Positions 5,047-24,926 of a DNA stretch of 27,227 nt are shown here, piece after piece. Position 1 is the stretch's first letter. The number at the start of each line of letters is the position of its first letter. The position numbers and the translations under genes were made by a program. Source of the stretch: a virus. Lineage: Duplodnaviria; Caudoviricetes. Location of the stretch: positions 1 to 27,227 of the IMG/VR virus record IMGVR_UViG_3300032272_000057. The stretch is one strand, 5' to 3'. The notes under the pieces are model-generated. The model ran no database searches. It saw only the letters and a list, made by a program, of their open reading frames with translations, and was not told where the DNA came from.

Positions 5047-5082
5047 ATGCAAAGCACCCTCAACAAATTGGTCGTTAAATGA
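5047..5082 (+). CDS. 11-aa leader ORF (MQSTLNKLVVK) overlapping the start of the next gene
   Basis: AAGGAGG at 5035-5041; ATGA overlap at 5079-5082. Confidence 0.5.
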   Translation: MQSTLNKLVVK

Positions 5083-5954
5083 GTTGGTCAGTCTCGGCCA
5101 CTTCCTCTGCTGTTAAGACTATTGACATTGAGTACAAGAGCAACGGGGAGTGGGAACAGTGGGGGTTGATTTCAAGCGACCGCCATATCGATAATCCGCA
5201 TTCAGACTTGGTGATGCAGCGGAAGCATCTGCAGCAGGCCAAAGAGCGCAACGCCTTTGTTATTGACACTGGCGATCTATTCTGCGCCATGCAGGGCAAG
5301 TTTGATAAGAGATCTTACAAACCGGATTTGAATGATGAGAACAAAGTGGGGGATTACCTTGGCTCTCTGGTTCGATCCGGTTTAAAGCTGTTTGAGCCTT
5401 TCAAAGAGAACCTGGCGATCATAGGCGAGGGTAACCATGAGTCGTCGGTCCGGAAGCGGGCAGAGTTTGATTTGACGCAAGCATTGGTCGATCGGTTGCA
5501 CGATAAGGGATCGATGGTGGCCATCGGTGGTTACCGCTTTTGGGTTCGGTTTAAGTTTAATAATAAATCAAAAACCAATCAGTATCGTCAGACCTTGAAT
5601 ATGTATTGCACTCATGGCGGCGGCGGGGGTGGTCCTGTAACGAAGGGCGTTATAAAGACCAACCGACGGGCGGTTTATCTTCCGGATGCTCACATAGTGA
5701 CCGGCGGCCATATCCATGAGAGCTGGTTGGTTGAGCTGACCCGGGCCCGACTGTCAACCAATGGGAAAGAGTTCCAGGATACCCAGACGCATGTGAGCTT
5801 GCCGACGTATAAGCAGGAGTTTATTGGTTCCGACGCAGGGTACCACCACGAGAATGAGCGACCGCCAAAGCCCCTGGGCGCCTGGTGGATACGTTTTTAC
5901 TTTGATCGATCCAAAAGCAAGAAGATTCAGTACGAGCTTCAACGAGCCCGATAG
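5079..5954 (+). CDS. Calcineurin-like metallophosphoesterase
   Basis: All five motifs present: SDRH, GD, GNHE, HG, GHIH. Confidence 0.9.
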   Translation: MSWSVSATSSAVKTIDIEYKSNGEWEQWGLISSDRHIDNPHSDLVMQRKHLQQAKERNAFVIDTGDLFCAMQGKFDKRSYKPDLNDENKVGDYLGSLVRSGLKLFEPFKENLAIIGEGNHESSVRKRAEFDLTQALVDRLHDKGSMVAIGGYRFWVRFKFNNKSKTNQYRQTLNMYCTHGGGGGGPVTKGVIKTNRRAVYLPDAHIVTGGHIHESWLVELTRARLSTNGKEFQDTQTHVSLPTYKQEFIGSDAGYHHENERPPKPLGAWWIRFYFDRSKSKKIQYELQRAR

Positions 5955-18138: not shown

Positions 18139-21100
18139 ATGTTGAACGAATTTGAAAATAAAATAGACAACGAGGAAATTGTCACTCCGGCACTCAGCGA
18201 GAAGCAAGACAACTTGGCCGAGCCCCACGAGACGAAAACCAGGACCCGTAACTCTGAGGCGGTGCGCTCGCGTATCACCGCTCGTTTTGAGCCAAAACCT
18301 GTTGATCCTGAAGTCACTAAGCAAATAAGTTCTACCTACACGGGCGCGACCGCCGCGATCATGGGCCAGATCGCCGATATGAACGCTAACGGCGGTTACC
18401 TTAAAAGTTCAATGAAAGCTGCGGTTGAAGTCCCCCGTGTCATTTATAACGGACTGGCCAACACCATCAACAGCATCATGGATTCGACTGAATACATCGG
18501 CGAGACGATGGCCGACTTCGTTATGCAGACCAGTGATGAAGAGAAGGCGCAGCTCGAAGAGTTAGAGATCAACCCCCGAATCCCTATGGCGGGCGAGCCT
18601 TCAACCGTCGTTGGTAAAGTCGGCCAAGAGATGATCACCTTTCTTGGTCTGTTCCAGTTTGCGGGCGGAGGCGCTACGGCGCCAACATCTATCCCGGCCA
18701 GAATGGGCGCTGACGCAGTAAAAGGAGCCATGGCCGACTTCATGGGCCCTGCTTACGAAACCAGAGCGTCCACAGCATTGAACGATGTTTTGAAAGAGAA
18801 CTTCCCCGGCCAAGAGAATACGTTCCTTGAGTGGATGGCCGGAGATCCCGATGATACCGAGGGTGATAAACGTATCAAGAATATGATAGAGGGGGCGCCG
18901 TTAGGGGTTGCAGCTGACGTATTTTTAACCGGTCTGAGAGCTTTGAAAAAAACCCGGTGGGCCAATAAAGCCGCCGACAAGATCTTTGGCCCAGGCCATA
19001 GCTCCGGAACGTTAGACCCCGAAATCAAGTTTGATGATCTGGATACATCAACCCCCGCAGCGCCGATCGAAGTAGAGCACCCGATCGTTAGAGGTGCTGA
19101 AGAGTTGGTCGATGCGGATTCCAGTATCGTGAGAGCGGCGCCATACGTTGAGCGTAACGGCAAACGTGTCCGTCCGATCTACACGGCCAACCGGGAGCAG
19201 ATCACAGACGTTATCAGTAAGACCGAAGCCGATTACACGAACCCGGATAAACTGGTATTTCGTGCCATCTTCCCGGATGATCTTAAATTCAAAGAAGGCA
19301 AGCTTCAGGCGAACCCGAAAGGTCATGCGACCGAAGAGGGCGAAAACCTGGTAGCATCTTGGTGGTCTTCGAGCCTTGAAGATGCCAAAGAAATTCTAAA
19401 GAACAAAGGCGAAGGCGCAAGAGTCGTCGCCATGAAAGTATCTGATTTACCTGATAAAACTTATCTGCAGAACGTAACTCCTGTTGACGACGTGCACAAA
19501 GTATGGGTCGGAGTCCCGGCCGACGTACCTCACAATAATTTATTATGGGTTGACACGGCCGGAGATTCTGCTACTATTGTTGCAAAACCTGCAACAAAAG
19601 GAGGAAAAAATGCAAAAACTGGAATCGATGACGTGGGAACAGTGGGAGAAGTATCGGGACGGCAAGGCGTTTCAGAAACTCCCGGTGGCCAAGCAGGTAG
19701 AAGTGATGAACAACTTGCCCAAGCAGCTGATGAGCAGACAGGTGGCGCAGGACATGGACAGCTCAAGCTAGAATCTGTATCCGGCAAAACCCCTGTTGAG
19801 ATTAACTTCGCCAGGATCGAAGCGCCTGAAGACATCAAAACGTTAATTCAGGATATGGCGAACGCCAAAGCCGGAGACATTGACGACGCCCGCCGCGGTG
19901 TTCGGACCTGGGAAGAAACAAAACTCTCGGCCGAGCAGGAAGACGCTTGGAAGATTCTCTCTGAACGCCGAAGCGGTGATCCTCTTAATGCCGAACAATC
20001 TTTAGCTGTTCGTGAGCTCTGGGTTCGATCTGCCGGTAAACTGAAGACACTGGCCGATCAAGCTGCAATCAACCCCTCTGAAGCCAATCTTTTTAAATTT
20101 CGCAAGATGGCGGCCACACATTCTGTTATCCAACAGGAAGTTATAGCAGCCAGGACCGAGACGGCTCGTGCGTTAAACGCATGGAAGATCCCGGCCGGCG
20201 GTAATGCCGAGAAGATGCGCCAGATGAATGACGTGCTAAACGCCGCAGGTGGCCCAGACGTCACCCGAGAAATGGCCGAGCGTTATTCCAAGATGGTCAA
20301 CGGCGGCGAGTTCGGGGCCTCTGAGAAATTCTTGGAGAGAAGTATTTACGAAAAGACCAAAGACGGAATAGCCCAAGTATGGGTAAACTCCCTCTTATCG
20401 GGCCCGAAGACTTTAGCCCGTAACGCCATATCCCAGACCGCCGTACTCGGCCAAATGATTTATGAGCGTAAAGCCGCTGAGTTGATCAGCGGAGCCCACG
20501 CCAACGGAGAGATCGCCCGTGGTGAAGCCATGCAGCTGATCTACGGATTGGTCGATGGCTTTAAAGATTCGTTCCGGGTTACCGCCAAAGGCCGGAAGAT
20601 GGCTATTGAGTCCGCCAAGAAAGTAGGCAAAGGTGATGTAGCCGGAGCGAAAGCAGCTCTTGAAGGTGGCCGGGATGAGTTTGGCACAGTATTCCAAAGT
20701 GTAGCCACCGGAGAATCCGGCATTGGCCTCGGGAAGATCGACCTGCCGAGACAAGGTTCTTTGTCGGCAGAGTCCCTTGGGGTTCAACACGCGGGCGTTG
20801 GTAAAGCCTTGGACGTACTTGATACAGTATCTCAGCTGCCGGGCCGCGCTCTGACCATATCTGATGAGTATTTCAAGACTTCAGCGTACCGAATGGAGCT
20901 TCGCGCCCAATCTCTCCGCCTGGCCAGTAAAGAAATAGCCGACGGGAAGATCCCTGCAGAACAATTAAAAGATCGCATGGCCGAGTTGATCAACGATCCA
21001 ACTGAAGAGTTGAGACTTGCTTCCGCCGACGCAGCCCTTACTGCCACATTCACCGGGCCGGTTGGTCCTGTTGGCGAAGCGATCACAAAGCTCGCGCAAA

Positions 21101-22305
21101 AGACCGGTCCTTTAGGACGTATCATCCTGCCGTTCCGGCGCACCCCTATCAACATCGCAGCTTACACTTTCGAGCGAACACCTCTGGCTCCTCTGGTCAA
21201 AAATTGGAGAGCCGATATGGCCGCAGGCGGCGCCAAGCGCGATCTCGCCCTGGCCAGAACATCAACCGGCACGGCGATCATGTTGGTTATGGCCGATCTG
21301 GCGATGAACGGAACGATTACCGGCGACGGCCCTGCGGACAACAGCCAGAAGGCGACACTGCAGCGGCAAGGGTGGCAACCAAACTCGGTGCGGGTACCAA
21401 CTGAAGATGGCGGCACCCGTTATTTCAGTTACCGTGGCCTCGAACCTATCTCCACCTTGATGGGCCTTTCGGCCAATACCATGGAAATCATGGAGCAACT
21501 CGGTGAAGATGATGAGAACGCCCAAGCTGATGAGCTTGTGATTGCAGGTATTCTCGCCATTGGTAACAACGTCACCAGCCAAACGTATATGACCGGTGTT
21601 TCCAACTTCATTGAAGCTTTGAACGACCCGGCACGTTTCGGCGAATCATATTTCAAACGCCTGGCTGCGTCCACAATACCTTCTGCGGTTGGCGAAGTTG
21701 CGACCTACAACGACCCTTACATGCGAGCGGCGAGTGATATGGCCGACGCCATGAAGCGAAAGACGCCCGGCTTATCCAAAGATCTGCCGTTTGTCCGCGA
21801 TCTCTGGGGGCGTCCAATGGACCGCCGATCAGGTATTGGCCCGGCGTATGATGCTTTCTCGCCAATATATTCGCGCAAGTTTAATCCACAAGCGATCGAC
21901 ACTGAGCTCGAAAGTCAAGAGATTTATGTCAGTCGGCCATCTAAAAAATCAGTGTTCAACGGGGTGGTCATGGATCTCGATCGATACCCTCATGCTTACG
22001 ACCGGTATCAAGAGTTGTCCGGAAACGCTATGACGCAAAACATATATGGCGCTCCGATCGATGTGTCTGGAAAAGGTTTGAAAGATGCTCTGAATGATCT
22101 AGTCACAGGCAAGCATCCACTGTCTCAAATTTATGATCTCTACTCTGATGGCCCCGACGGCGGCAAGAGCGATCTAATCAAAGATATGGTGCGCCAATAC
22201 CGAGAAGCAGCCAGAGCTCATATCTTAAAAGAGTTTCCAGAGATCGAGGCAGAGGTGGAGATCAGAAAAGCACAGCACCCGGGCAAGATTAACCTAGCCA
22301 ATTAA
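18139..22305 (+). CDS. Large internal virion (ejection) protein, 1388 aa, with an inserted ART-like domain
   Basis: Synteny (T7 gp16 position); conserved C-terminal part (NSLLSGP.T..RN, PF.RTP.NI, ITG.GP, GWQP.S, SY.GLEP, RDLWG.P). Confidence 0.85.
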   Translation: MLNEFENKIDNEEIVTPALSEKQDNLAEPHETKTRTRNSEAVRSRITARFEPKPVDPEVTKQISSTYTGATAAIMGQIADMNANGGYLKSSMKAAVEVPRVIYNGLANTINSIMDSTEYIGETMADFVMQTSDEEKAQLEELEINPRIPMAGEPSTVVGKVGQEMITFLGLFQFAGGGATAPTSIPARMGADAVKGAMADFMGPAYETRASTALNDVLKENFPGQENTFLEWMAGDPDDTEGDKRIKNMIEGAPLGVAADVFLTGLRALKKTRWANKAADKIFGPGHSSGTLDPEIKFDDLDTSTPAAPIEVEHPIVRGAEELVDADSSIVRAAPYVERNGKRVRPIYTANREQITDVISKTEADYTNPDKLVFRAIFPDDLKFKEGKLQANPKGHATEEGENLVASWWSSSLEDAKEILKNKGEGARVVAMKVSDLPDKTYLQNVTPVDDVHKVWVGVPADVPHNNLLWVDTAGDSATIVAKPATKGGKNAKTGIDDVGTVGEVSGRQGVSETPGGQAGRSDEQLAQAADEQTGGAGHGQLKLESVSGKTPVEINFARIEAPEDIKTLIQDMANAKAGDIDDARRGVRTWEETKLSAEQEDAWKILSERRSGDPLNAEQSLAVRELWVRSAGKLKTLADQAAINPSEANLFKFRKMAATHSVIQQEVIAARTETARALNAWKIPAGGNAEKMRQMNDVLNAAGGPDVTREMAERYSKMVNGGEFGASEKFLERSIYEKTKDGIAQVWVNSLLSGPKTLARNAISQTAVLGQMIYERKAAELISGAHANGEIARGEAMQLIYGLVDGFKDSFRVTAKGRKMAIESAKKVGKGDVAGAKAALEGGRDEFGTVFQSVATGESGIGLGKIDLPRQGSLSAESLGVQHAGVGKALDVLDTVSQLPGRALTISDEYFKTSAYRMELRAQSLRLASKEIADGKIPAEQLKDRMAELINDPTEELRLASADAALTATFTGPVGPVGEAITKLAQKTGPLGRIILPFRRTPINIAAYTFERTPLAPLVKNWRADMAAGGAKRDLALARTSTGTAIMLVMADLAMNGTITGDGPADNSQKATLQRQGWQPNSVRVPTEDGGTRYFSYRGLEPISTLMGLSANTMEIMEQLGEDDENAQADELVIAGILAIGNNVTSQTYMTGVSNFIEALNDPARFGESYFKRLAASTIPSAVGEVATYNDPYMRAASDMADAMKRKTPGLSKDLPFVRDLWGRPMDRRSGIGPAYDAFSPIYSRKFNPQAIDTELESQEIYVSRPSKKSVFNGVVMDLDRYPHAYDRYQELSGNAMTQNIYGAPIDVSGKGLKDALNDLVTGKHPLSQIYDLYSDGPDGGKSDLIKDMVRQYREAARAHILKEFPEIEAEVEIRKAQHPGKINLAN
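19550..19604 (+). promoter_or_regulatory. Intragenic promoter, operator copy 3 and RBS
   Basis: TTGACA (19550-19555), 16 bp, TG-c-TACTAT (19569-19577); TTGTTGCA-aaacc-TGCAACAA (19577-19597); AAGGAGG (19598-19604). Confidence 0.75.
19610..19771 (+). CDS. Nested +1-frame small protein (53 aa, MQKLESMTWEQWEKYRDGKAFQKLPVAKQVEVMNNLPKQLMSRQVAQDMDSSS)
   Basis: Own promoter, operator and consensus SD 5 nt before ATG; amphipathic helical sequence; overlapped host frame is low-complexity. Confidence 0.7.
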   Translation: MQKLESMTWEQWEKYRDGKAFQKLPVAKQVEVMNNLPKQLMSRQVAQDMDSSS

Positions 22306-23442: not shown

Positions 23443-23814
23443 TTGACACGATCTGACCAACAGTGGGAGTTTCTGCAGGACATCGCAAAGCTTATTATCT
23501 TCGCCAAGGAGAAAGGTTACAAGCTCACTGGCGGAGAGCTGAAGCGGCCAACGCAGATGCAAGCTTTATACGTCAGATCCGGTCGATCAAAGACGATGAC
23601 CAGCGATCACTTGATCTCGATGGCCATAGACTTCAACATCTTTTTCGACTACGATGAGGATGGTGATAAGGATTATATCGGCGCCATCTCGAAGCAGGAG
23701 GCGATGAGAGTATCCGAAGACTTATGCGAATACTGGAAGTCATTGAATCCAAACAACTATTCGGGCCGGGATTGGGGTTGGGACATTCCTCATTTTGCGA
23801 GGCATAGCGTTTGA
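23443..23814 (+). CDS. Endolysin, peptidase M15 family
   Basis: R....Q..Y...GRS.TM.S.H....A.D and D.PHF zinc-ligand motifs; TTG start is uncertain. Confidence 0.85.
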   Translation: MTRSDQQWEFLQDIAKLIIFAKEKGYKLTGGELKRPTQMQALYVRSGRSKTMTSDHLISMAIDFNIFFDYDEDGDKDYIGAISKQEAMRVSEDLCEYWKSLNPNNYSGRDWGWDIPHFARHSV

Positions 23815-24317
23815 GTGGCGCTGCTCTTAAAAGATGTAGGTTGTGCGAAGAGGAAAAGCCGGCAACTGATAAGTATTTTCATAAACATAACAGCACAAAA
23901 GATAGGCTTCGCCACGTATGTAAACCATGTAGAAAGAAAGAGACATACTCAATTGACTACCATTATAAAAATAGGGAAGCAGTCCTCGCAAGAATGAAAG
24001 TGTACGCCCAGAGGCCCCTACCAAGAGCGAGAAAGTTTGTCAGAGATTACACAAGGATTGATATTAAAAAAGGGCAAACGTGCGATTTAACTGTTGAATT
24101 TATGCTGGAGGTATTTAAGCAAGCATGTGTGTACTGCGGAGATACAGATCAGATAGGCTGCGACCGAATCGACAACGACTCGGGGCATACCAAATATAAT
24201 GTGGTGCCATGCTGCAGGGTTTGTAATATAGCAAGAAGCGATAACTTTACGCACGAAGAAATGAAAACAATTGGAGCGGCTATTGCGGAAGTCAAGAGCC
24301 GCAGAAAACAACTCTAG
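23811..24317 (+). CDS. HNH-type endonuclease with N-terminal zinc finger
   Basis: CRLC...CKPC, then CVYCG...G.DRIDN..GH...NVVPCC..CN; AT-richer than flanks. Confidence 0.85.
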   Translation: MSGAALKRCRLCEEEKPATDKYFHKHNSTKDRLRHVCKPCRKKETYSIDYHYKNREAVLARMKVYAQRPLPRARKFVRDYTRIDIKKGQTCDLTVEFMLEVFKQACVYCGDTDQIGCDRIDNDSGHTKYNVVPCCRVCNIARSDNFTHEEMKTIGAAIAEVKSRRKQL

Positions 24318-24542: not shown

Positions 24543-24926
24543 ATGGGAATCGATGCGATATTAGCACTTGGTGGTTTGATTATCCCGCCGGCTTTCGACT
24601 TCATTAAAAAGAAGTTTGTCAAAGGCGGCGACACTTCGCAAGCAACGGCGAACACCTTGGCCACGACAAAGCCTGAAGTTCTGCCAGAGTTCTTGAAAGC
24701 ATCGGCCGGCATTATTGAAGCAGATGTTAAGTGGTTCAACCGGGATGTCATTGGTATCCCTTCGCAATGGGTTGTCGATCTGAGAGCATGCATCCGGCCG
24801 ATGTCGGTTGTCATCGGGTTCGCCCTGTTGGCTCTTGATATGTCAAACACTTTAACTCTCGACCCGGGCACCCGTGGAAGCATTATTGTAAACAACTCAT
24901 CCTGGTTCGGATCTCGAATTAAGTAA
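24543..24926 (+). CDS. Membrane protein, 3TM/GTA-holin-like
   Basis: W...LRA.IRP + hydrophobic segment + WFGSR C-terminal motif. Confidence 0.6.
   Translation: MGIDAILALGGLIIPPAFDFIKKKFVKGGDTSQATANTLATTKPEVLPEFLKASAGIIEADVKWFNRDVIGIPSQWVVDLRACIRPMSVVIGFALLALDMSNTLTLDPGTRGSIIVNNSSWFGSRIK

Follow-up and report, generated by a model that had tools for sequence, protein, structure and literature searches.

Virion-delivered enzymes are made abundantly in the very host that they could poison, and how this is avoided is still open for polyvalent and ejection proteins. The locus analysed here raises this question within a single virion gene, in which a domain resembling ADP-ribosyltransferases (ARTs) is directly followed by a small open reading frame in the +1 frame. 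The window, i.e., the whole stretch of 27,227 bases that was analysed, is a virus record of about 69% completeness and covers the part of a T7-like podophage genome devoted to packaging and the virion, with genes for terminase, portal, capsid, tail tube, nozzle, three internal virion proteins and tail fibre. Its nearest relative is labelled as coming from a Planctomycetes bin, which is weak evidence for the host. The most likely reading, to which we give a probability of about one half, is that this gene encodes an injected ART-fold effector together with a nested cognate antitoxin, its toxicity, binding and activity being putative.

The carrier gene and its variable cargo site

The carrier gene (18139..22305, + strand, 1388 aa) encodes an ejection protein of the T7-like internal virion protein D family, as judged from homology and from its position in the virion block. 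It matched PHROG 6651, annotated as internal virion protein, with an E value of 1.7e-48, and tblastn retrieved the D-type internal virion proteins of podophages from the sea, namely pelagiphages, roseophages and cyanophages, at 22-29% identity. The gene lies 3' of the tail nozzle gene and two smaller internal virion genes and 5' of the tail fibre gene.

Elsewhere in the window, a calcineurin-like phosphoesterase gene (5079-5954, Pfam E 2e-4) is situated between the probable small terminase and large terminase genes. In addition, a Cys-rich frame of 168 aa (23811-24317), labelled HNH-like by eye from its translation, is flanked by a probable endolysin gene (23443-23814) and a probable holin-like gene (24543-24926), which were also labelled by eye.

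Comparison of homologue lengths revealed a variable cargo site at carrier aa 291-548 (19009..19782, + strand), which is 258 aa long in the window vs 25-88 aa in insert-free relatives. Of 539 homologous proteins, 120 were listed. Both flanking anchors were present in 117 of them, and in 11 proteins of this set, counting that of the window, the site exceeded 95 aa. The best 80 of 248 carrier loci from IMG/VR, together with the window, gave 70 distinct cases, and 15 of them had an insert at the site or no upstream anchor. The cargo was a zeta kinase domain in locus L055 (PF06414, Pfam E 4e-17), ART-PolyVal in L100 (Pfam E 6e-8) and, by a weak Pfam match, a GNAT domain in L070, while the remaining inserts were ART-like by eye only; a Pfam scan of 16 sequences left nine with no informative match above chance level or with no match at all. 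This range of cargo is the range described for polyvalent proteins in the accessible text of PMC5512222. The first-pass annotation had supposed that a swappable module was inserted in the middle of the protein, and the variability of the site among relatives, which hold a GNAT, another ART-like domain, a zeta kinase or nothing, bears this out.

Two more ART-like insert types occupy the same site, one in P0025, P0038, P0045, P0094, P0103 and L045 and the other in P0085 and L098; neither had a Pfam match, nor a nested frame where DNA could be examined. Profile-profile comparison of the window domain with the other ART-like inserts at the site gave no similarity (probability below 1%).

The predicted ART-fold domain and the frame behind it

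The motifs that the first-pass annotation quoted for an ART effector were located in the + strand carrier frame at aa 372-457, within a domain of 109 aa (carrier aa 369-477; 19243..19569, + strand). An initial model of 145 aa, with a pLDDT of 47, reached Z scores of only 2-3 and retrieved nothing from the PDB in Foldseek, and the trimmed model was used instead. The best AlphaFold2 two-sequence model of aa 369-477 had a pLDDT of 76 and a pTM of 0.72, and was the only one of five above 70, the other four lying at 54-59. Against 48,161 representative chains, VIA-align gave 28 chains at Z of at least 5 and none at 8, with a best Z of 7.6. The first rank was taken by an unnamed ADP-ribose complex (Z 7.6, rmsd 3.0, 87 residues aligned), and DarT gave Z 7.4, rmsd 3.4 and 108 residues aligned. 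Judging by their titles, we take 46 of the 50 listed rows to be members of the ART superfamily, including DarT, Tpt1, TreX, AvrPphF, Arr, RES toxins and PARPs, and these span model residues 1-109; the remaining four are the first-ranking complex, a pair of proteins from structural genomics and one chain of a cyanophage ejectosome. The Z scores themselves are middling, and the fold is assigned because the list is so uniform. The ESM Atlas, when restricted to its named clusters, offered PARP, Tox-ART-HYD1, TreTu_C and Arr-ms at 0.85-0.88 among matches of 0.85-0.89 overall, which serve as leads only. No match to the domain was found in Pfam, in PHROG or in a sequence search of the PDB. Taken as a structural prediction, the ADP-ribosyltransferase fold of aa 369-477 that the first-pass annotation had suspected is firmly supported.

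Residues 1420-1607 of PDB 9k3a chain B, from the cyanophage A4 pre-ejectosome, also matched the ART-fold model weakly (Z 4.3); no mention of ADP-ribosyltransferase, NAD or toxin was found in the accessible text of the corresponding paper (PMC12002296).

The active site is more difficult to classify. Arg375 is located on the first strand (model residues 4-9) and is invariant in both homologues, and the strand-2 segment reads WW-SSS (408-412), of which SSS (410-412) precedes a helix (model residues 45-52) and is replaced by TTS in the homologue. The conserved pair Asp450-451 sits in a low-confidence loop of the model. If the register is set by the usual spacing of ART motifs, there is no Glu on the last core strand (model residues 88-91) or its flanks in either homologue, just as the first-pass annotation had cautioned for the catalytic position. 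Of the R-S-E features that it had named, the strand-1 Arg is present and the catalytic Glu is not apparent, and the Ser motif before the helix is seen here but not in the homologue. The ART-PolyVal model (PF18760), which matches inserts of relatives, did not match this domain, whose first strand has Arg rather than His. Because it combines a strand-1 Arg with no apparent catalytic Glu and with SSS or TTS on strand 2, the domain is filed neither as R-S-E nor as ART-PolyVal. The two Trp before SSS also suit the aromatic pattern of H-Y-E enzymes.

These features leave some room for the view that the altered fold acts as a decoy, which binds NAD+/ADP-ribose or a host defence protein and has the peptide as its chaperone or regulator rather than its antitoxin. 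The missing Glu, the Trp pair at the strand-2 position and the presence of Tpt1 and a structural-genomics protein besides toxins among the near structural neighbours would all agree with it, but Arg375, the S/T-S/T-S segment and the acidic pair are kept in both homologues and the cargo site is repeatedly occupied by enzymes, so that we regard a decoy as unlikely.

The nested +1-frame ORF (19610..19771, + strand, 53 aa), the candidate cognate antitoxin, is marked by its open frame, its Shine-Dalgarno (SD) sequence and a codon-position bias. It lies wholly within the carrier ORF and starts about 40 nt 3' of the folded domain, in agreement with the first-pass annotation, which had placed a nested gene right after the domain. 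Its SD sequence AAGGAGG (19598..19604, + strand) is separated from the ATG by 5 nt, and the predicted anti-SD duplex of -11.6 kcal/mol exceeds in strength that of every long + strand gene scored (18 genes, best -9.3) and ranks first among 24 alternative-frame ATG starts of at least 40 codons inside those genes (next -10.5). Weaker alternative starts are a TTG upstream at 19484 and a second ATG at 19628 (SD -3.3). The carrier codons over the nested ORF are also biased, with A at the third position in 24 of 54 vs 21% elsewhere in the gene (p 1e-4); none of the 116 other 54-codon windows reaches 24, the highest having 23.

It might be objected that the 53-codon frame is no gene, its SD and ATG being by-products of the KGGKNA codons of the carrier and the segment a spacer that accompanies the domain. 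In 2000 rounds of random synonymous recoding of the carrier segment, GGAGG arose from the Gly-Gly and Lys codons in 19% and the frame stayed open in 11%, but all three of open frame, ATG and GGAGG coincided in 0.85%; as this test and the codon bias concern a site chosen post hoc, 0.85% is not a genome-wide p value. Among 479 core windows, 8 have a comparable SD-plus-ATG ORF, as do 3 of 55 insert-free loci, and two tests for constraint on the +1 frame in the single relative that carries the domain, P0004 with its cluster mate P0123, were both negative: second-base retention estimated from protein was 7/18 vs 26/63 and 91/179, and compatibility estimated from protein was 0.55 vs a control of 0.49 +/- 0.12, with 58 of 197 windows as high. 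Against the objection stand, besides the joint recoding frequency and the shifted codon-position bias, the conservation of the supposed spacer, which in P0004/P0123 equals that of the folded domain, and the independent parallel at the same site in L055, and such an accidental frame thus appears quite improbable.

The domain itself is 67/130 identical over the aligned residues in P0004/P0123, and the carrier segment over the peptide is 16/30 identical without gaps, vs 13/57 in the linker before the domain. Read at the protein level, no stop is forced in the +1 frame of P0004/P0123. Their codons could provide an SD-like K-G-E stretch as well as an ATG and the W-x-x-W-E-K plus R-D-G-K core of the peptide, and M/T-W-x-x-W-E-K fits the +1 frame. 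Domain and nested segment are thus kept together in two of two carriers, the second at protein level only, and the co-retention that the cassette idea had predicted holds to the extent of this one relative. Among the searched proteins and the best 80 of 248 carrier loci, P0004 and P0123 were the only homologues of the domain. Searches of INPHARED phages and IMG/VR returned none beyond the window and searches of GTDB genomes none, with none confirmed among the 152 stretches listed in each of IMG/VR and GTDB; metagenome contigs yielded five chance matches and the window's own contig. The count of carriers, i.e., the window and P0004/P0123, is therefore a lower bound.

Searches with the nested peptide gave four matches at E 3-10 and seven pattern matches, none in a related setting, and its exact sequence was absent from the protein collection searched; no stand-alone copy was found in these searches. 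A contig from one DNA sequencing run, possibly the source of the record, covers 19304-20200 with no differences, and no RNA sequencing run containing the nested region was listed.

Across the cargo site as a whole, nested SD-plus-ATG ORFs were present in two of the 15 inserts among the best 80 of 248 loci and the window, and were not found in the other 13, including three other ART-like ones (L045, L098 and L100). With most inserts lacking such an ORF and three of the insert-free loci having one, the site as such is not enriched, and nested partners accompany particular cargoes, not the site generally. The proposal that domain and nested ORF are swapped as a unit accordingly survives for these two inserts but not for most cargoes. 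The same count lends something to a further alternative, in which the nested ORF is indeed a gene but only a passenger, i.e., a small late gene in a permissive linker, unconnected to the ART-fold domain, since most ART-like inserts do without a partner. However, among the stored proteins and the 80 carrier loci (best 80 of 248) the segment was seen only with this domain, in both of its carriers, and it begins right behind the domain and has no stand-alone copy that we found; a passenger is possible, though on the unlikely side.

A +1 ORF in the insert of L079 was rejected as a nested partner on account of its SD of -2.9. Long alternative-frame ORFs were also observed near the 5' end of the carrier frame in L091 (codon 46, +1 frame, 143 aa, SD -10.3) and in L080 (codon 58, +2 frame, 275 aa), and these may be overlapping upstream genes or frameshifts.

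Zeta kinases with nested frames

The second insert with a nested ORF is that of L055, in which a zeta kinase at the same cargo site is followed by a 51-aa +1 ORF (L055:5199-5354) with an SD of -12.2. The best 80 of 207 zeta kinase loci in IMG/VR (L118-L197) comprised 68 distinct ones; these fall into 28 clusters at an identity threshold of 70%, or 12 at 60%, and are therefore not independent. A +1 ORF was found from the kinase end in all 68, and a strict test for an ATG start and 40-80 aa was passed there by 66. At three upstream control anchors the test was passed by 4/68, 5/68 and 0/68 loci, at downstream anchors by 1/17, 2/15 and 1/15, and in the +2 frame by 0/68; a fourth upstream anchor gave 27/68, none with an SD better than -4.6, vs 62 of 68 ORFs at the true anchor with an SD reaching -5. 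To find a partner, one may thus read the +1 frame just behind the enzyme domain, a rule that recovered the ORF in 66/68 zeta loci.

The kinase is terminal in 34 of these loci, where the small ORF runs beyond the kinase stop, and internal in the other 34, where the small ORF lies inside the carrier (one is cut by the locus end). A profile built from the free parts after the stop scored 10 of the 34 internal peptides, that of L055 included, above all 680 shuffles; therefore, the nested form appears to be this same gene, through which the carrier frame continues. The phage zeta ORFs form a family of 44-75 aa with a C-terminal helix of A-x-x-L-N-x-x-V type. In MW202577.1, an unannotated 40-aa ORF (L115:5676-5799) lies across the stop of an 878-aa protein annotated as thymidylate kinase, which has a C-terminal zeta_1-type kinase domain; this ORF did not score with the terminal-peptide profile.

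The phage-type kinase is a member of the family of gonococcal zeta_1 (E 4e-56). Eight plasmid zeta loci were taken from two tblastn lists of 14 and 96 records, and seven of them have a nested, unannotated +1 ORF behind the kinase: L116:2129-2332, on a Novosphingobium plasmid, L117:2192-2419, L199:1473-1736, L200:1392-1592, L201:1386-1586, L202:1392-1592 and L203:1401-1604. The eighth, from Neisseria, has the epsilon_1 gene upstream instead. According to the accessible text of PMC5923241, epsilon_1 is a proven antitoxin, which neutralises zeta_1 and binds as an extended chain. The profile of the seven plasmid ORFs scored 19.6 bits against gonococcal epsilon_1, with 2000 shuffles reaching at most 8.9, in a comparison made after a resemblance had been noticed. 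The partner-finding rule thereby ties the plasmid cases to a proven antitoxin and would explain why seemingly orphan zeta_1 genes are tolerated. The phage-type zeta partners gave no match to epsilon_1 (2/71 at p<0.05, both plasmid), and their role is therefore proposed from position. Likewise, the window peptide appears unrelated to the zeta partners (profile scores of -0.2 and -0.1; 5/68 pairwise at p<0.05), so the zeta case serves as an analogy for the window. The general design put forward in the first-pass annotation, a toxin domain with an out-of-frame nested antitoxin, is supported through zeta_1-type kinases.

Proposed mechanism and comparison with known systems

If the nested frame encodes an antitoxin, the most likely course is that the cargo slot captured, as one cassette, an effector gene together with a partner gene that overlapped its downstream end. 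Loss of the effector's stop would then have let the carrier frame run on through the partner, which persists one base out of frame. The carrier and the 53-aa peptide would both be produced from the same late mRNA, and by binding the domain the peptide would keep it silent in the virion-producing cell. It might not be delivered, or might be stripped as the ejection protein unfolds to exit the capsid, and the domain, injected with the ejection protein, would act only in the newly infected cell. Its NAD-using activity would be non-canonical, proceeding without the usual Glu, either as transfer or as NAD cleavage.

An out-of-frame nested antitoxin would be a concrete answer to the problem of self-poisoning, invisible to gene callers and to standard annotation. 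The wider idea, which we put forward tentatively, is that phage ejection and polyvalent proteins as well as plasmid zeta_1 genes carry effector cassettes with the cognate antitoxin overprinted in the +1 frame, the Glu-less pair of the window among them, which might amount to a large unannotated class of antitoxins, perhaps with a function in self-immunity. The zeta evidence contributes as much to this case as the window locus does. If true, hidden peptides let phages build, and perhaps be immune to, their own injected toxins. In the literature searched, no out-of-frame antitoxin was described that is nested behind an effector domain, be it in a virion, polyvalent or zeta gene, although subscription papers and the supplements of PMC5923241 and PMC5512222 may hold such a description; it is already known that ARTs are injected, that polyvalent proteins carry cargo and that an antitoxin can be encoded in frame within its toxin gene (Rpn).

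MuF and other polymorphic toxins combine a virion carrier, an exchangeable toxin domain and a small immunity gene downstream. In those systems the toxin forms the C-terminus and its immunity gene comes after the stop codon, whereas the candidate toxin domain of the window is internal to its carrier, and it is for this reason that its partner would be overprinted. Polyvalent virion proteins have been described as large carriers whose exchangeable ART, GNAT and zeta domains are predicted to work on the host during infection (accessible text of PMC5512222 and PMC9503650), and a MuF-zeta fusion is mentioned in the former. The window carrier resembles them in that its relatives hold ART-PolyVal and zeta domains, but unlike ART-PolyVal, with its H-Y-D site, the window domain has a strand-1 Arg, no Pfam match and a single homologue; nested partner genes are not mentioned in the accessible text of PMC5512222, where the word overlap does not occur. 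T4 Alt, a member of the R-S-E clade, is a head-packaged, injected ART that exists as a protein of its own and has a catalytic Glu (same source). The window domain is predicted to share with it an injected ART fold, the strand-1 Arg and a Ser/Thr-rich strand-2 segment, but differs as a domain of 109 aa within an ejection protein, with a nested partner ORF and a last core strand without Glu.

The Rpn systems have an antitoxin gene within the toxin gene that is translated separately (10.1101/2023.05.02.539157, accessible text). There, the antitoxin is the toxin's own C-terminal domain in the same frame and functions in host defence, while the partner in the window is out of frame and in a phage virion gene. 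The gonococcal epsilon_1/zeta_1 pair is similar in using a small partner for an enzyme, epsilon_1 being an extended helical antitoxin of about 60 aa (PMC5923241, accessible text), and in kinases homologous to zeta_1 the +1 frame contains a nested ORF resembling epsilon_1. The Neisseria epsilon_1 is a separate upstream gene, whereas in the window the candidate toxin has an ART fold and its nested peptide is not homologous to epsilon_1.
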